64,000 nt of DNA from positions 287,467 to 351,466 of the forward strand of contig JBAZUE010000001.1 in NCBI GenBank assembly GCA_041661605.1, written 5' to 3'. The translations under genes were made by a program, and so were the position numbers. Each line of letters opens with the position of its first letter. Position 1 is the stretch's first letter. The stretch is from Candidatus Omnitrophota bacterium. GTDB taxonomy: Bacteria > Omnitrophota > Gorgyraeia > Gygaellales > Profunditerraquicolaceae. The notes under the pieces were generated by a model. That model was not told the origin of the DNA. It saw only the letters and a list, made by a program, of their open reading frames with translations, and ran no database searches. This document shows, piece after piece, positions 19,401 through 39,571 of the stretch.

Positions 19401-19471
19401 GCGGGTGTAATTCAGTGGTAGAATGGCAGCTTCCCAAGCTGCATATGGCGGTTCGATTCCGCTCACCCGCT
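19401..19471 (+). tRNA. tRNA-Gly (anticodon CCC)
   Basis: Hand-folded cloverleaf: acceptor GCGGGTG/CACCCGC, anticodon arm GCAGC-TTCCCAA-GCTGC, T loop TTCGATT, discriminator U. No encoded CCA. Confidence 0.9.
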
Positions 19472-19482
19472 ATAAAATCAGT

Positions 19483-20145
19483 ATGATGAAGAGAATAATC
19501 TTGATTCTGATGGCTTTGGTTGTATCCGGTTGCGCAACCAGCCCGACTTATACAGTGACAAGGCCGCCTGTTCCGCACCAGGTTATCTCCGGGCTGCACC
19601 ATCGCGTAGAGCCTAAACAAACGCTCTGGAAGATATCCAGGATGTATAATGTAGATATTGACGATATCTTAAGAGCGAATAATATTTCAGAAGACGCTGC
19701 TATTGAAATTGGGCAGGTATTACTAATACCCGGACGTTTAAAACCTTCGAGCGAGCCGGTAATTTCCAGCGGAGATGATTTTATTTGGCCCCTGAAAGGG
19801 AAGGTACTTGCCGGCTTCGGAGTCAATTACCGGAATCTGATCAACAAGGGAATTAACATTCAGATATCCCTGGATGCTGATATCCTGGCATCGCGCAGCG
19901 GCAGGGTAGTTTTTTACGCCGCTGATTTCGGCAATTTTGGGAGGACTTTGATTATTGACCATGGAAACGGCCTGCGCAGCATTTACTCCGGGGCCTCAGA
20001 TTTTTTTGTCCGGCCGGGAGAAAACGTTCAAAGGGGAGCCTTGATTGGGCGCATCGGCTCAACTTCCAAGGGTAGGAATAATTACTTGCATTTTGAGATC
20101 CGTAAAGGCGCTATGCCCCAGAATCCTTTGTTTTATTTGCCATGA
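19483..20145 (+). CDS. LysM domain / M23 family peptidase lipoprotein (NlpD-like)
   Basis: Start moved to the ATG after the tRNA. Lipobox LVVSGCAT, LysM (HRVEPKQTLWKISRMYNV) and M23 core (LIIDHGNG, HFEIR). Confidence 0.85.
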   Translation: MMKRIILILMALVVSGCATSPTYTVTRPPVPHQVISGLHHRVEPKQTLWKISRMYNVDIDDILRANNISEDAAIEIGQVLLIPGRLKPSSEPVISSGDDFIWPLKGKVLAGFGVNYRNLINKGINIQISLDADILASRSGRVVFYAADFGNFGRTLIIDHGNGLRSIYSGASDFFVRPGENVQRGALIGRIGSTSKGRNNYLHFEIRKGAMPQNPLFYLP

Positions 20146-32470: not shown

Positions 32471-32498
32471 TTGACATTGTAACTTATAATATTATAAT
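32471..32498 (+). promoter_or_regulatory. sigma-70 promoter of the envelope lipoprotein cluster
   Basis: TTGACA 32471-32476, 16-nt spacer, TATAAT 32493-32498. Confidence 0.6.
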
Positions 32499-32536
32499 GA
32501 ATCAATAATCTTTTGTTATTGGAGATTGACAAAAAT

Positions 32537-34066
32537 ATGCATCTTAGAGTGGGTAAGTTAATCCTCGCTACCCTTATCGTTTTTTCAATTACCTTTCCTG
32601 TTTTTGCTAAAGGAACTCAAAATTCCAATCCCGAAGAAGTAAAATACAGCCCAAAAAATCTGGTTGATGAAGACGCCATGCAGGCAGAGATGGATTTTTA
32701 TGCCGGTAATGACCATGAAGCAGAGTTGATCTTTAAGGGTTTGAAAGCAAAAAAAGATCACGATGTCGCGCTCTGGAGCAATCAATTGGGCTCCTTGTAT
32801 TTGACTCAGGGCAAAACCAAGGAAGCCGAAGAGTCTTTTATGGATGCCTATCTTGTGATGAATAATATCGCTGCTTTTAAGGATTTGGAATTACATTCTG
32901 TGGGGTTAATGGGAGCTGAGGCGACTAAGGCGTATAAAGGTGACCCCTACGAGAAAGTATTTAATTCTTTTTATGTAGGAATCCTTCTTTGTTCAAGTAA
33001 CGATTTTGAAAATGCGCTGGCTGCTTTTAAGAACGGAATCTTATGCGATTCCGATGTAGAATGTAATCTTTATAAGAGTGACGTAACCTTGCTCTATTTG
33101 ATGGCTTCCCGTCTTGAATCCCTTCAGAAAAACCAATCCCTGGCGGATGATTATTTTAAGCAGGCCAAAGAAGCCTTTAATCTTTCTTACCCGGATAACC
33201 GCCAGTTCGTCTCACAAGAACAGGGTTTATTGGATGATTTAACCAAGAAACAGAAAATTCTCTCTGATAAAGAAGCTCCGTATAAAAATGGGGCCGTGGC
33301 AGAAGCTGCCTCTCAGGGGCAAGGAAAGAATTCCGCTGGAGAAAAGAAGGCAAAGAAGATGCCTGCTAAAGAGGAAAAAGAAATTAATGTTTTAAAGTCA
33401 GATATCTCTAAACTTGAAGCTGATATTAAGGCGTTAGCGGATACGATAGAGGAAAATGGCCGTAAGATTGCAACAACAAGCCTAAATGATTTAGTTAATC
33501 TTAATAATAATACCTTGTTATGCATTGAAACAGGAAGGAGCCCGCTTAAATATCAGGTAGGCAACTATGGAGAAAAGGCGGTTTTTACTATAAAACCTTA
33601 TCGAAGCAGAGGATTTAGCGTTACTGTTGATAATTTTATCAAGATTAAAACGGAGAGTTTCCTTAAAAACAACGACGTTTATTATCAGGCTTCTACCCGT
33701 GGCGGCAGGGTTATGGACGGCATATTAAAAGGTAAGGCAGATTTTAAGAAGACGACCGCGGATGTTTCGAATTTACTTTCTAATGTGTCGCAGGTATATG
33801 ATCCTTACGGCGTATTATCGCTTTTTAGTTTAGCTGCGGGGGCTGTCAGTAACGCTACTAATCCTTATGCTGACGCTAGGCATTGGAGCTTACTGCCTGC
33901 GGAAATTCAGCTGGTCCCCATGCACTTAGATCCCGGGAAGCATAAGATACAAATTGATGCATATGATTCTGCTGGAAAAATAATTGAGAGTTATAAAACA
34001 GAGATTGAAATTACGGATATTCCTAATAACATTATTTTTAAACGATTCCGCGAGAAAACATTATAA
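32537..34066 (+). CDS. large secreted protein with TPR-like N-terminal region, function unknown
   Basis: ATG 32537 follows GGAG and lies downstream of the promoter; the track start 32513 (TTG) is less likely. Signal peptide ...FPVFA, TPR-like helices and a Lys/Glu-rich coiled segment. Confidence 0.6.
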   Translation: MHLRVGKLILATLIVFSITFPVFAKGTQNSNPEEVKYSPKNLVDEDAMQAEMDFYAGNDHEAELIFKGLKAKKDHDVALWSNQLGSLYLTQGKTKEAEESFMDAYLVMNNIAAFKDLELHSVGLMGAEATKAYKGDPYEKVFNSFYVGILLCSSNDFENALAAFKNGILCDSDVECNLYKSDVTLLYLMASRLESLQKNQSLADDYFKQAKEAFNLSYPDNRQFVSQEQGLLDDLTKKQKILSDKEAPYKNGAVAEAASQGQGKNSAGEKKAKKMPAKEEKEINVLKSDISKLEADIKALADTIEENGRKIATTSLNDLVNLNNNTLLCIETGRSPLKYQVGNYGEKAVFTIKPYRSRGFSVTVDNFIKIKTESFLKNNDVYYQASTRGGRVMDGILKGKADFKKTTADVSNLLSNVSQVYDPYGVLSLFSLAAGAVSNATNPYADARHWSLLPAEIQLVPMHLDPGKHKIQIDAYDSAGKIIESYKTEIEITDIPNNIIFKRFREKTL

Positions 34067-34067
34067 A

Positions 34068-34634
34068 ATGAAAAAAACATTCCTTATTATTGCATCGGTT
34101 TTCTTCCTTTCCGGCTGCGCTGTCGTTAACCCGTATGTCTTGACTAAGAATCAAACTAATCTTGATTTGAGCAATAACCGGGGAGTAGCCCTATTTACCT
34201 TAAGAATAAAGAATTCAGGGAGCGACCACCTTTTTTTGTCGTCCTTTGCGGTTCGCGAAGCCAATCAGTATAAATCTTACAACACATTAGGCTATTATTA
34301 TATACCGCTTACCGGGGAAAACTATTCTGCCTCGGACGACTTATATTTTTGCACCGCGGTTCTCACCAGGGGTATATACCGGCTGGATTCGTTTAGTGGA
34401 TTGACTAATTCTTTTTTTAGTGCTCCGTATACGCTAAAAGGTGATAAGATTTTTGACGTGTATCCCAATAAGATAAACTATATAGGCAGTCTTGACTTCG
34501 GCGATTTAGACACTAAAATTGCGCTTATCTCTTTAAAAGGACTGAAAGATAGCTACGAGCAGGATGTAAAGAAATTTAAGGAAATCTTTCCGGTGTTAAA
34601 AGATAAAGAAATCGGTAAAGATTTATTCTATTAG
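34068..34634 (+). CDS. lipoprotein, function unknown
   Basis: Start moved to ATG 34068. Lipobox FLSGCAV. Confidence 0.65.
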   Translation: MKKTFLIIASVFFLSGCAVVNPYVLTKNQTNLDLSNNRGVALFTLRIKNSGSDHLFLSSFAVREANQYKSYNTLGYYYIPLTGENYSASDDLYFCTAVLTRGIYRLDSFSGLTNSFFSAPYTLKGDKIFDVYPNKINYIGSLDFGDLDTKIALISLKGLKDSYEQDVKKFKEIFPVLKDKEIGKDLFY

Positions 34635-34646
34635 AAAGGAGCGGTA

Positions 34647-35246
34647 ATGAGGCTTTCAGTGATTATTTTTGGGGCGTTTTGTTTATTTTTAGCGGCAGGA
34701 TGTTCAACAGTAGAGACTTCTTATACTAAAACTATCCAGCCTGACCAGGATGACGGGTTGGGCGGAACAGGCATAGAATCTACGGATATCCGCACTGTTG
34801 CCAGAAATATGGCTGCTTCAATATTGGATGTTCCGCAAATATCAAGGGTTCAAGGCGCTGCGCCTAAAGTAGCGCTTTTGCCCGTGAAGAACTCTACGCG
34901 TTTTATAATCAATAAAGATATATTTACCAAGAAAATCCGTATTGAGCTTAATCAAAACGCAATGGGTAAAATTACTTTTCTTGCCCGCGACCGGATGGAT
35001 GATATTTTAAAGGAAAGGCAAGCCAAGCGCGATGGTTTAGTCGGCTCAAGTAAACAAGAAGATATAAAGGGGGTAGATTTCTATCTTACCGGAGAATTAA
35101 TGGGGCTGAGCAAGGCTAATAACGGGGATAGGTCGGATTATATCTCAATGTCATTCCAGCTTATTGATGCCGAAACTTCAGAGGTTGTCTGGGAAAATGA
35201 ATATGAAGTCAAGCGCGTAGGAACGGCAGGGGTTGTTTATCAATAA
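34647..35246 (+). CDS. LpoB-like (COG3417) lipoprotein
   Basis: Lipobox LAAGCS. GGTGIESTDIRTVARNMAASIL and YLTGEL...SFQLIDAETSEVVW segments fit the penicillin-binding protein activator LpoB family. Confidence 0.7.
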   Translation: MRLSVIIFGAFCLFLAAGCSTVETSYTKTIQPDQDDGLGGTGIESTDIRTVARNMAASILDVPQISRVQGAAPKVALLPVKNSTRFIINKDIFTKKIRIELNQNAMGKITFLARDRMDDILKERQAKRDGLVGSSKQEDIKGVDFYLTGELMGLSKANNGDRSDYISMSFQLIDAETSEVVWENEYEVKRVGTAGVVYQ

Positions 35247-35269: not shown

Positions 35270-35677
35270 ATGTGGAAAAAAATGTTGTTGTTGGTTTTAT
35301 CGATTTCAATCGCAGGCTGTGCGTCGGTTCCGGCTAAAGGGATCAAGCCTAAAAAAGCATCCCAGCTTTATGAAGAGACTGAAACCTTTGTCTATCTCAG
35401 TAAGGGTTTAAATAAACAGCTGATGCTGGCAGACCAGGCAATATCAGCCACCGAAGACGGCAGGTTAGTAGTAAAAGCCAAATTGTTTAATAAACTGGCT
35501 GAGGATTTGCGCGCGCAGATCCAGACCATTTTTAAAGATAAAGACGGTTATCCTACCGGTGATGAGACGAACTGGGAATTAGTTGTCATTCCGCATAATG
35601 CTTATTATTACTATGAAGCTAAAGCTATGAATACAAAGGCCGAGAAGTATGTTACACGCTGCCGTTATGCCGAATAA
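35270..35677 (+). CDS. YcfL-like (DUF1425) lipoprotein
   Basis: Lipobox IAGCAS, about 130 aa beta-rich. Adjacent to the LpoB-like gene, matching the E. coli ycfL-lpoB pairing. Confidence 0.5.
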   Translation: MWKKMLLLVLSISIAGCASVPAKGIKPKKASQLYEETETFVYLSKGLNKQLMLADQAISATEDGRLVVKAKLFNKLAEDLRAQIQTIFKDKDGYPTGDETNWELVVIPHNAYYYYEAKAMNTKAEKYVTRCRYAE

Positions 35678-35692
35678 GGGGGAAAAATAGCT

Positions 35693-37321
35693 ATGGTTAA
35701 AAATATTTCAATTTTCTTGGCAGGGTTAGGCTTTTTAATTTTAAGCGGATCCGGAGTTTTTGGGCAGGAGCAGCAAGAGAATAAAACATACAACTATGAG
35801 CAGAAGGCCGTCAGTAAAATTGTTAAGAAGGATTTAAGGATTACGGCTGCGGTTTTTGTATCCGAGAACAATCTAAAATATAAAGACAGCCTCTTTAATC
35901 CTCCGCAAGAGGAATTGCTTCAGGCAAACGCTATTTCTGTAGATAGGGCTGATATTAAAATTGATAATAGTCAGAAACAACCAGAAAAGAAAACTGATTC
36001 GGAACTGGTAACCGGTCTTTTAACTAACGCTTTGCGTGAAAGCGGGAAAATTTCCGTTATTGAACGGCAGGATATTAATGCTATTTTACGAGAGGCGGAG
36101 TTTAGTAATTCTAAATGGGTTAATTCTGAGCAGGCGGCTAAAATAGGAAATATCTATGGTGTTAAATATATTATAATTGCGAATCTGCTTAAGGGGCAAG
36201 CAGGGGAAAGGGTTGCCCCGAATAATTATGTTTTGGCTTTACGTTTGTGCGAAGTTGAAACCGGCAATATATCTTCTACGGGACAGGGCGATGGCCAGAC
36301 AGTAAGAGATGCGGTTATTAATGCCGTAAAGGATTTCTCTTCTAAAATTAATAGCCAACCTTGGAGTTCGCGTATTATTAAAATTGAAGAAGGTTTTGTA
36401 TATCTTGGCGCAGGAAGCGCCGAGGGATTAGAAAATAAAGATGTATTGGAGGTCTATAAGTTAAAAAGTAAGATCGTTGATCCTGAAACAAACAAAGTTT
36501 TAGGTTCAGATAAGACAAGAATAGGCAGGCTTGAGATAGTTGATATTTTGAGTCCTGATTTGTCCAAAGCTAGAGTTTTGGAGTCTTCGGAACCTATTAC
36601 TACGGATTTTATTGTTCAGGCAAGCTCAACGCTGGATGCCGGCACTGATGAGGCAGGAAAATGGAAGAAAATTTATGGAGATGTTTCTTTAGATAAGCCT
36701 AAGACTGAAGCATCTAAGGGTGCTATCTCTTCCTCTGATAGTTCCGCCGAAAATATGAGCATGTCAATTGAAGGGTTGGTTCAGCTTGCTAGCCCGGCAA
36801 TAGTTATGATTACCACCGTCAGCAATACCGGTGGCGCCCTGGGCAGCGGTTTTCTTATTAGTTCTGATGGAACCATTGTTACCAATTATCATGTTATTAA
36901 GGGAGCGGAAGGCCTGGGCGTAAAATTTGCACAGGAAAAAGAGTTAATTACCAATGTAAGCGTAATAAAAACCGATGCTATCCGGGATATAGCTTTGATT
37001 AAAATCAACACCCCGGTTAATGCCGCTCCTTTGTCTTTGGGAGATTCAGAGCAAATATCTGTAGGTGAGCGTGTAGTTGCTATTGGTAACCCGCAGGGAT
37101 TACAGAATACAGTATCTGACGGACTAGTGAGCGCGGTGCGTGATGCCGGAGGTGTAAAACAAATTCAGATTAGCGTGCCTATCTCCCATGGCTCAAGCGG
37201 AGGCGCGCTGATAAATATGCGCGGACAGGCTATCGGAATTACTTCTTCAGGTTATGATCAGGCGCAGAACCTGAATTTTGCTATTCCTATAAATTACGTT
37301 AAAGAATACCTGCAGCAGTAA
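35693..37321 (+). CDS. secreted fusion protein: CsgG/FlgT-N-like domain + beta-barrel middle domain + trypsin-like (S1C) serine protease
   Basis: GKISVIERQDINAILREAEFSNSKW...YGVKYIIIANL is CsgG-like. C-terminus has TNYHVI, DIALIKI and SHGSSGGALIN, a His/Asp/Ser triad context. Confidence 0.7.
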   Translation: MVKNISIFLAGLGFLILSGSGVFGQEQQENKTYNYEQKAVSKIVKKDLRITAAVFVSENNLKYKDSLFNPPQEELLQANAISVDRADIKIDNSQKQPEKKTDSELVTGLLTNALRESGKISVIERQDINAILREAEFSNSKWVNSEQAAKIGNIYGVKYIIIANLLKGQAGERVAPNNYVLALRLCEVETGNISSTGQGDGQTVRDAVINAVKDFSSKINSQPWSSRIIKIEEGFVYLGAGSAEGLENKDVLEVYKLKSKIVDPETNKVLGSDKTRIGRLEIVDILSPDLSKARVLESSEPITTDFIVQASSTLDAGTDEAGKWKKIYGDVSLDKPKTEASKGAISSSDSSAENMSMSIEGLVQLASPAIVMITTVSNTGGALGSGFLISSDGTIVTNYHVIKGAEGLGVKFAQEKELITNVSVIKTDAIRDIALIKINTPVNAAPLSLGDSEQISVGERVVAIGNPQGLQNTVSDGLVSAVRDAGGVKQIQISVPISHGSSGGALINMRGQAIGITSSGYDQAQNLNFAIPINYVKEYLQQ

Positions 37322-38866: not shown

Positions 38867-39571
38867 ATGAGGAAAATGTTTTTGATATTTAGCGGCATGG
38901 CTATTTGTTTATTTTTAACTGGCGCTTATGCGGCATTCGCTCAAGAGGAAGCCAGGCAGGAAATAGGCTATGATAAGCAGCAGATTAAGGCGCAAAAACA
39001 AGAGATATCACAAAATGCCCAGGCAGCTAAACAGGAAGAAGTTAAATTGAAAGAGCAAATAAAAGCTGCCATGGATTCAGGCGATACAGAGACAGCTCAA
39101 CAGCTTAGAGAGCAGCTCAGGGCTATCCATCAGGAAAATTTACAAGAAAAAACGCAAGACAAGCAGGAGATGCAGGCAGCTAAAAAAGAGCTAAGAAGCG
39201 ATATTGGAGAAGCACAGCAAGCGGATGATTTTTTCCCTGACGCGCCGATAGCCAAGCCAAGCGCAGGCCCTGATTGGGAAAATAAATCTTTGCCGATAGC
39301 CAAGCCAAGCGCAGGCCCTGATTTGGAAAATGCGCCCGTGTTTCAAGGTGGGCCGGGTATCGGTCCCAAGATAAAGCCGGCACTTGATAAAGATAATAAT
39401 CCTCCCGGGCCTAAAGGTGGAGCAGGCACTAATTGGGAAAACAAGCCCGGGCCACAGGGCGGTCCAGGGGCTTCGCCTGATAAAAAACCCGGATTGGTTA
39501 ATCCTCCGGGACCCAAAGGCGGACCAGGCGCCGGGCCAGGAAAACCTAAGTTAGCCCCCGGAGGTAAATGA
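38867..39571 (+). CDS. secreted Gln/Glu-rich and Pro/Gly-rich repeat protein
   Basis: Signal peptide, a QQ/EE coiled region, then PIAKPSAGPD(W/L)EN and NPPGPKGG repeats. Confidence 0.6.
   Translation: MRKMFLIFSGMAICLFLTGAYAAFAQEEARQEIGYDKQQIKAQKQEISQNAQAAKQEEVKLKEQIKAAMDSGDTETAQQLREQLRAIHQENLQEKTQDKQEMQAAKKELRSDIGEAQQADDFFPDAPIAKPSAGPDWENKSLPIAKPSAGPDLENAPVFQGGPGIGPKIKPALDKDNNPPGPKGGAGTNWENKPGPQGGPGASPDKKPGLVNPPGPKGGPGAGPGKPKLAPGGK
39244..39330 (+). repeat. 48-nt period tandem duplication inside the repeat protein gene
   Basis: 39-nt core at 39244-39282 and 39292-39330 matches at 38 of 39 positions. Confidence 0.9.

Follow-up and report, generated by a model that had tools for sequence, protein, structure and literature searches.

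A FlgT-like module joined to a PDZ-less HtrA-type protease in a conserved lipoprotein gene cluster of Omnitrophota

In the NlpI-Prc and LbcA-CtpA systems, a periplasmic protease degrades peptidoglycan hydrolases that a tetratricopeptide repeat (TPR) lipoprotein presents to it. Here we describe a gene whose product may keep comparable company, a fusion of a FlgT-like N-terminal half to an HtrA-type protease, encoded at positions 35693 to 37321 of a 64,000-nucleotide (nt) stretch of a Candidatus Omnitrophota genome (assembly GCA_041661605.1, contig JBAZUE010000001.1, positions 287,467 to 351,466 of the forward strand; the whole stretch is called the window). The H ring of the Vibrio flagellum is made up of 26 FlgT subunits, which clamp the N-terminal loop of the lipoprotein FlgH and bind a second lipoprotein, FlgP, by its C-terminal tail (bioRxiv 10.64898/2025.12.04.692373). 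The CI and CII domains of TsaP, which are FlgT-C-like, form a ring around PilQ (bioRxiv 10.1101/2020.05.29.123786). Operons resembling parts of the cluster described below have been reported from Campylobacter jejuni, in which the TPR lipoprotein Cj0089, Cj0090, and the LpoB homologue Cj0091 are encoded together (PMC3100323), and from Helicobacter, in which cells that had lost HP0018, the homologue of Cj0089, showed an envelope and vesiculation phenotype (PMC11394524). We found no study of a CsgG/FlgT-like-protease architecture in the literature on DUF1425, YcfL with LpoB, CsgG-like proteases, or Omnitrophota proteases. Both halves of the fusion belong to known fold families, no characterized member of the combination or of the operon turned up in that literature, and the main new result is the cluster context. 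We propose, at a probability of roughly 0.55, that the FlgT-like module docks a flexibly held protease on an outer membrane lipoprotein complex for local envelope proteolysis.

Architecture of the fusion protein

The first-pass annotation had described an unusual fusion, in which a CsgG/FlgT-like N-terminal module and a middle beta-barrel-like segment precede an S1C protease devoid of PDZ domains. Pfam, Foldseek, and the catalytic triad bear this architecture out, and every motif quoted at that stage lies in the open reading frame (ORF): GKISVIERQDINAILREAEF at residues 118 to 137, YGVKYIIIANL at 155 to 165, FVYLGAGSAEGLENKDVLEVYKL at 235 to 257, GRLEIVDI at 278 to 285, TNYHVI at 397 to 402, DIALIKI at 432 to 438, and GSSGGALIN at 500 to 508. 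The parts of the gene and protein are as follows.

35693 to 37321, + strand: gene 5, the FlgT-like/HtrA-type protease fusion; ATG-to-stop ORF of 542 amino acids (aa), stop codon included in the coordinates
35693 to 35764, + strand: residues 1 to 24, Sec-type signal peptide ending …SGSGVFG/QEQ, without a lipobox Cys; read from the sequence, with AFA/QDQ in homologues
35828 to 36352, + strand: residues 46 to 220, alpha/beta domain of the CsgG/LpoB/TolB-N fold; from Pfam, AlphaFold2, Foldseek, and residue conservation
36362 to 36628, + strand: residues 224 to 312, beta-roll or beta-barrel of the FlgT-C/TsaP CI-CII type; from AlphaFold2, Foldseek, and a profile match
36650 to 36679, + strand: residues 320 to 329, helix EAGKWKKIYG with near-invariant W324, the last element of the N-terminal module
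36680 to 36766, + strand: residues 330 to 358, Ser/Lys/Glu-rich low-confidence linker
36767 to 37318, + strand: residues 359 to 542, HtrA-type (S1C) chymotrypsin-fold protease; from Pfam, NCBIfam, PDB alignment, and Foldseek
36890 to 36892, + strand: codon of H400, catalytic triad
36986 to 36988, + strand: codon of D432, catalytic triad
37196 to 37198, + strand: codon of S502, catalytic triad

The fused ORF was found in >60 independent sequence clusters; since the architecture recurs across dozens of independent assemblies, an assembly or frameshift artefact was ruled out. In the databases, an identical protein from a 922-kb contig of a Candidatus Omnitrophota metagenome-assembled genome (MAG) is named only “trypsin-like peptidase domain-containing protein,” and the automatic JGI name for the fusion reads [quoted passage not shown]

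A full-length AlphaFold2 model was built from an alignment of 27 sequences and reached a mean predicted local distance difference test score (pLDDT) of 65; with a predicted template-modeling score (pTM) of 0.38, it gave no confidence to any packing between the domains. Its N-terminal hydrophobic helix spans residues 2 to 19. The N terminus, MVKNISIFLAGLGFLILSGSGVFG followed by QEQ, reads as a Sec signal peptide layout without a lipobox cysteine, and cleavage would be expected between …SGSGVFG and QEQ. None of the 27 homologues aligned to the fusion has a canonical lipobox. Because the signal peptide lacks the lipobox cysteine, the fusion protein should be soluble in the periplasm, like FlgT and unlike CsgG and LpoB.

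In the C-terminal unit, Pfam Trypsin_2 (PF13365) matched residues 384 to 516 (E = 4e-29), no PDZ family matched the fusion in Pfam even at E ≤ 1, and the C terminus of the protein is the last helix of the protease domain, which was modelled at a pLDDT of 80 to 90. In Foldseek, the protease model superposed on DegP, DegQ, and HtrA1 with a root mean square deviation of 2 to 2.8 Å and 35% identity over ~190 residues. The His, Asp, and Ser contexts recognized in the first-pass annotation line up properly with the triads of Thermotoga maritima HtrA (1l1j) and MucD (8k2y). This is the best-conserved region of the fusion protein: His400, Asp432, and Ser502 are invariant in 27/27 aligned homologues and in 61/61 full-length homologue clusters, and the GSSGG oxyanion motif is likewise invariant in all 61 clusters. 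Judged from its sequence, then, the C-terminal unit is a catalytically intact, PDZ-less serine protease of the HtrA family. It shares with HtrA, DegP, DegQ, and DegS (MEROPS S1C) the chymotrypsin fold, the His-Asp-Ser order, the GxSGG motif, and the periplasmic location, and it differs from them in having no PDZ domain and an accessory module that is N-terminal and of unrelated fold. The NCBIfam Do/HtrA model (TIGR02037) scored 146.4 bits against a cut-off of 416.2 and covered the protease core only. Compared with T. maritima HtrA, the loop before IQISVPI, which we take to be the L3 sensor loop of HtrA, is shorter by 8 residues.

The nearest relatives of the protease domain (45 to 55% identity) are almost all PDZ-less Trypsin_2 proteins with unrelated extra domains, among them TPR, MORN, Cu_amine_oxidN1, and zinc ribbon domains; the S1C domain of RsgI9 from Clostridium thermocellum (PDB 7sjy) also matches, at E = 3e-24. 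No relative listed carries a CsgG/LpoB/FlgT-type module. Since nearly all of these closest relatives lack PDZ domains, the PDZ-less state is the norm for this protease subfamily and not a loss.

The N-terminal half consists of two domains. The fold similarity to CsgG, FlgT, and LpoB that had been suggested was seen in Foldseek, and in Pfam for CsgG and LpoB; the extent first given to the module, residues ~100 to 215, starts too late, as the alpha/beta domain begins at about residue 46, with its first strand at 50 to 58. A conserved but low-confidence insert of 42 residues (59 to 101), in which the invariant residues S66, F68, and N69 sit, precedes the first helix of this domain. The middle beta-barrel-like segment corresponds to an all-beta domain (approximately residues 225 to 309 in the AlphaFold2 model; pLDDT, 75 to 85). 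The linker that follows varies in sequence and length among homologues, and pLDDT is <50 over residues 313 to 355.

Residues 30 to 345 were modelled separately (mean pLDDT, 62) and compared with the PDB by Foldseek. The top two matches were both FlgT, from the LPHT ring (8z5n; E = 2e-10) and from the crystal structure (3w1e; E = 1e-9), and these alignments, of 310 to 331 columns each, take in both domains. The next matches of the alpha/beta domain were TolB-N, CsgG, PelC, LpoB, GNA1162, and CT253, and the beta domain also matched the N-terminal barrels of F1/V1-ATPases. A sequence profile of the N-terminal half, searched against the PDB, found the beta-roll of TsaP (6ve2; E = 3.6e-4) and CsgG (E = 7e-3). 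Because FlgT matches best, and over both domains, the N-terminal half as a whole is most accurately called “FlgT-like.” With FlgT it has in common that it is secreted, non-lipidated, and built of an alpha/beta domain followed by a beta-roll; it differs in sequence (8 to 9% identity), in its C-terminal protease, and in the lack of a flagellar gene context. With TsaP, a secretin-associated LysM protein (6ve2, 3jc8), it shares the beta-roll at the level of the sequence profile, but the fusion has a single beta-roll and no LysM domain, and TsaP has neither the alpha/beta domain nor the protease.

The alpha/beta core fold is common to LpoB, CsgG, PelC, GNA1162, TolB-N, and the fusion. Pfam CsgG (PF03783) matched residues 103 to 164 (E = 8e-11; 42.1 bits against a gathering cut-off of 20.8), a match that spans only model positions 37 to 97 of 210, the soluble alpha/beta core; the channel-forming part of CsgG is absent from the fusion. 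Pfam LpoB (PF13036) matched residues 100 to 194 (E = 2e-6), but LpoB is a lipoprotein and the fusion is not, and the score against TIGR02722 was 34.4 bits, compared to an equivalog cut-off of 110.55. The N-terminal half is therefore neither a CsgG channel nor a true LpoB, both of which were rejected as readings because their defining features failed.

Searched against 1.84 billion cluster representatives, the profile of the N-terminal half retrieved 9,309 proteins at E ≤ 1e-3 and 1,380 at E ≤ 1e-10. Most of these relatives are stand-alone proteins of ~300 aa, and some, of ~900 aa, hold 3 to 5 copies of the module. A Pfam scan that covered 71 of 147 relatives gave the following counts.

Pfam CsgG: 70/71 scanned relatives
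Pfam LpoB: 56/71
Pfam FlgT_C: 33/71
Pfam FlgT_M: 22/71
Pfam Trypsin_2: 2/71

Other partner domains of the module include TPR with PDZ, CARDB with PEGA and an outer membrane protein barrel, and FGE-sulfatase. The FlgT-like module is thus widespread and found with many partner domains, while its fusion to a protease is rare.

The five-gene cluster and its relatives

The fusion gene closes an operon of five tightly spaced genes on the + strand, with gaps of 1 to 23 nt; among the gaps read, three contain purine-rich, Shine-Dalgarno-like runs. The other members are as follows.

32471 to 32498, + strand: sigma-70-type promoter-like site, TTGACA-16 nt-TATAAT, 12/12 consensus matches, as a consensus match only
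32513 to 34066, + strand: gene 1, secreted TPR protein, 517 aa from TTG; weak Pfam TPR matches
34068 to 34634, + strand: gene 2, small lipoprotein of 188 aa, lipobox LSGC, no known family
34647 to 35246, + strand: gene 3, LpoB-family lipoprotein of 199 aa, lipobox AAGC; PF13036, E = 6e-22
35270 to 35677, + strand: gene 4, DUF1425/YcfL-like lipoprotein of 135 aa, lipobox IAGC; weak PF07233 match, E = 2e-3

The listed TTG start of gene 1 at 32513 lies only 15 nt past the -10 box, and the likelier start is the ATG at 32537, which has a GGAG 12 nt upstream and gives a 509-aa protein in agreement with the database entry P0325. Gene 1 has a signal peptide here, and some of its orthologues have a lipobox. 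Gene 3 scored 70 bits against TIGR02722 (cut-off, 110.55) and is not an LpoB equivalog. Gene 4 was assigned to its family by way of orthologues in two other loci, L001 and L032, which match the window copy by phmmer at E = 1e-20 to 1e-79. On both sides of the cluster lie housekeeping genes unrelated to it: upstream, genes for a radical SAM protein and a DUF2062 protein, and downstream, gpmA and a rubrerythrin gene.

To place this arrangement, the five window proteins were compared by phmmer with 26 related loci. The TPR gene and the LpoB-like, DUF1425-like, and FlgT-like genes lie together in each locus that could be evaluated, across 22 species-level genomes. They occur in two orders, one of which (order A) runs TPR, lipoprotein, LpoB, DUF1425, fusion, and the other (order B) LpoB, DUF1425, FlgT-like, TPR. 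An orthologue of gene 3 is present in every evaluable locus, orthologues of gene 2 are present in order A loci, and TPR orthologues of gene 1 adjoin LpoB/DUF1425 genes in 20 loci, and the genes on either side of the cluster vary from locus to locus. Distant stand-alone FlgT-like relatives also adjoin DUF1425 genes, in 4/4 evaluable cases.

Some of these neighborhoods differ in content. A Phycisphaerae MAG (GCA_021736645.1; L032:7001-10170) has the TPR gene (505 aa), a gene for a 185-aa protein, and the LpoB and DUF1425 genes, with no FlgT-like gene after them; as this cluster lies outside Omnitrophota, the four-gene core is wider than the fusion. In one subclade, represented by L001:9627-11529 and L017:7610-8893, two extra genes follow the fusion gene, one a Lipoprotein_16 gene (YajG-like, by a weak match) and the other encoding a 413- to 428-aa paralogue of the TPR protein of the cluster (phmmer, E = 1e-25). 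On the JGI contig of a further relative (P0129), a DUF1425 gene and a stand-alone FlgT-like gene stand back-to-back with an opposite-strand secretin/T2SS-E/T2SS-F cluster (T2SS, type II secretion system), a neighborhood of note because the beta-roll resembles that of the secretin-associated TsaP.

Parts of the cluster have counterparts elsewhere. In Escherichia coli K-12, ycfL (DUF1425) adjoins lpoB, just as the DUF1425-like gene adjoins the LpoB-like gene here, although E. coli YcfL and LpoB are remote from the cluster proteins (~22 to 24% identity over partial alignments). The cj0089-91 operon and the HP0018/HP1457 genes likewise encode a TPR protein together with an LpoB homologue (PMC3100323, PMC11394524). 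Unlike the cluster, these operons contain neither a FlgT-like gene nor a protease gene. When a profile of the TPR protein was searched, homologues came up only in Omnitrophota, plus one in Phycisphaerae, and none in Campylobacter or Helicobacter; the link to cj0089 and HP0018 is therefore no more than a likeness in operon composition. The DUF1425-like, LpoB-like, and TPR proteins had no meaningful matches when searched by sequence against the PDB.

We also looked for genes that would tie the cluster to a known machine. No flagellar (flgO/flgP, motX/motY) or secretin family was found in the scanned ORFs, which cover 18 to 50 kb of the window, and flagellar families were also absent among the neighbors listed for related loci. 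There are no csgA, csgB, csgE, or csgF genes near the fusion gene, whose neighbors are the LpoB-like, DUF1425, and TPR genes, and the window has no gene for PBP1b, whose UB2H domain is bound by its activator LpoB. A gene combining LysM with an M23 peptidase, of the peptidoglycan hydrolase type, lies at 19423 to 20145 (+ strand), 16 kb upstream of the cluster.

Two other features of the window were recorded. The ORF at 38867 to 39571 (+ strand) encodes a secreted protein of 234 aa whose N-terminal half is rich in Gln, Glu, and Lys and whose C-terminal half is rich in Pro and Gly, the latter containing the near-identical repeats PIAKPSAGPDWENKS and PIAKPSAGPDLENAP and several PGPKGGxG units; no Pfam family matched it at E ≤ 0.001. 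Up to ~50 kb of the window, nearly all long ORFs are encoded on the + strand, and from ~51.6 kb onward on the - strand, and between ~50000 and 51600 the GC skew falls from positive to about zero or negative and the AT skew goes negative. This interval may mark a replication terminus or a strand switch of some other kind.

Protease-less forms and the order of events

The fusion proved to be rare: every fusion protein with a named source was from Omnitrophota, apart from those in MAGs that are unclassified or probably mislabelled. The family census gave 61 full-length clusters and, beside these, ~35 clusters of genuine orthologues that have no protease. Several of the protease-less clusters lie on contigs of >100 kb. 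In four of the loci compared (L013, L019, L020, and L024), the FlgT-like gene is only ~333 to 368 aa long, measured as stop-to-stop ORFs, and the protease-less orthologues end ~10 residues past the W-x-x-I-[YF]-G helix. In L013, the next gene follows directly and no protease remnant is present. The flanks examined in these four loci, up to ~7 kb on each side, contained nothing that matched the fused protease.

In a neighbor-joining tree of the N-terminal module, the protease-less forms fall in two places among the protease-bearing ones. The fused proteases are monophyletic with respect to six PDZ-less outgroups, and the protease tree mirrors that of the N-terminal module. Because the protease-less forms are nested in this way and the two trees agree, the parsimonious history would be one fusion event in an ancestor of Omnitrophota followed by at least two losses of the protease.

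The invariant residues of the N-terminal module, among them Y35, Q37, K46, S66, F68, N69, and W324, which lie in low-confidence segments, are as invariant in the protease-less forms as in the fusions, and the shared invariance means that they serve a function of the N-terminal module itself, for which partner binding would be the natural candidate. The FlgT-like module is, accordingly, the conserved core of this family, and the protease is an optional accessory rather than a component that has taken the module in place of PDZ.

One protease-less locus has a protease gene of its own. At L033:10941-11699 (ENA ERZ27245622 k141_449181), a separate Trypsin_2 gene encoding 252 aa, its H/D/S triad intact, begins 24 nt after the protease-less FlgT-like gene (P0126, 325 aa) in the same cluster. 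It was rejected as a split fusion, its similarity being remote (BLASTP, E = 0.013) and a signal peptide being absent; the arrangement may be fortuitous, or a trypsin-fold protease may have been recruited independently.

Proposed mechanism and alternative explanations

In the mechanism that we favor, docking of the protease on a lipoprotein complex, the FlgT-like module would be a structural subunit that assembles with the three lipoproteins and the TPR protein of the cluster. The conserved motifs in its low-confidence segments could bind lipoprotein tails, and by analogy with FlgT and TsaP the module could oligomerize. The protease would then be held beneath the outer membrane on a flexible tether of ~30 residues and would degrade or process envelope proteins met by the complex. 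Our most specific guess, suggested by the TPR and LpoB-like company of the fusion and by the logic of NlpI-Prc and LbcA-CtpA, is regulated turnover of peptidoglycan-remodeling enzymes; envelope quality control, acting on misfolded proteins, is just as possible. The likeness to NlpI-Prc and LbcA-CtpA is a functional analogy only; Prc and CtpA, which carry PDZ domains, are proteases of the S41 type.

Several observations weigh against this proposal. The Foldseek template-modeling scores (TM-scores) of the N-terminal half to FlgT are only 0.39 to 0.48, the model of the alpha/beta domain is only moderately confident (pLDDT, 55 to 75), and the fusion itself has no Pfam FlgT_N, FlgT_M, or FlgT_C match at E ≤ 1. 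Kinship of the TPR protein with NlpI, LbcA, Cj0089, or HP0018 is conjectural. Finally, the repeated loss of the protease means that the complex works without proteolysis.

The first-pass annotation had suggested that the N-terminal module takes over the role that PDZ domains normally play in targeting. Targeting or anchoring survives as the best explanation of the module; replacement of PDZ does not, given that the relatives of the protease are PDZ-less and the module is autonomous. In its full form, this alternative holds that the N-terminal module recognizes substrates or activating ligands and turns on the protease allosterically, in the manner of the PDZ domains of DegS and DegP. HtrA proteases normally require a regulatory accessory domain, and the fusion has no other candidate; moreover, the shortened loop before IQISVPI implies that regulation must differ from the canonical scheme. 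Nonetheless, the module exists, equally conserved, without any protease, and the nearest protease relatives do without PDZ in combination with many unrelated partner domains. Considering also the low-confidence linker and the absence of confident packing between domains in the model, tethering would fit better than PDZ-like allosteric gating, and we think the allosteric alternative unlikely.

It is more doubtful still that the protein is a true, protease-bearing orthologue of FlgT or TsaP whose ring encircles a flagellar L/P ring or a secretin. In favor of this, the structural comparison ranks FlgT first and the sequence profile has TsaP as its best PDB match, and one distant relative adjoins the opposite-strand secretin/T2SS-E/F cluster mentioned above. 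However, the identity to FlgT is very low, LysM is missing, and the operon and the scanned ORFs contain no flagellar, MotX/Y, FlgO/P, or secretin genes; the conserved partners are instead LpoB-like, DUF1425, and TPR proteins. We therefore consider orthology very improbable.

A protease domain that is dispensable could also be degenerate, with a binding or chaperone role but no catalysis. Pseudo-proteases, MamO for one, are known among the relatives of HtrA, and here the domain has been lost repeatedly while the cluster was kept. The invariance of the triad and of GSSGG across all of the full-length clusters, in the best-conserved domain of the protein, makes degeneracy a poor prospect indeed. 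As for a CsgG-like outer membrane secretion channel fused to a protease, which the above-threshold Pfam match and the automatic JGI name might suggest, the partial match, the missing lipobox and csg genes, and TM-scores that reach at most 0.36 when normalized to CsgG leave it with almost no likelihood.

A bolder form of the docking proposal can be stated, although we hold it to be improbable as a whole. The five genes would encode an unrecognized periplasmic machine in which a FlgT/TsaP-like ring stands on LpoB-like and YcfL-like lipoproteins with a TPR adaptor and carries, in most Omnitrophota, a crown of tethered HtrA proteases that prune peptidoglycan-remodeling enzymes or other envelope proteins. 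If it exists, such a machine would work like NlpI-Prc and yet be built from unrelated parts. The fusion would then offer a guilt-by-association hint at what YcfL/DUF1425 proteins do, and it would bear also on the very large family of stand-alone “CsgG-like + FlgT_C” proteins to which the 9,309 representatives belong.

Whatever the fate of that picture, the FlgT-like module is a fixed member of a cluster of LpoB-like, YcfL-like, and TPR lipoprotein genes, parts of which recur in E. coli (ycfL-lpoB), in Campylobacter and Helicobacter (cj0089-91, HP0018/HP1457), and in Planctomycetota. The fusion links a protease to families of no known function, namely YcfL/DUF1425 and the LpoB-like proteins outside enterobacteria, and natural lineages with and without the protease are available for comparison. 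That evolution attached a protease to this complex and sometimes removed it suggests that the complex handles envelope proteins.

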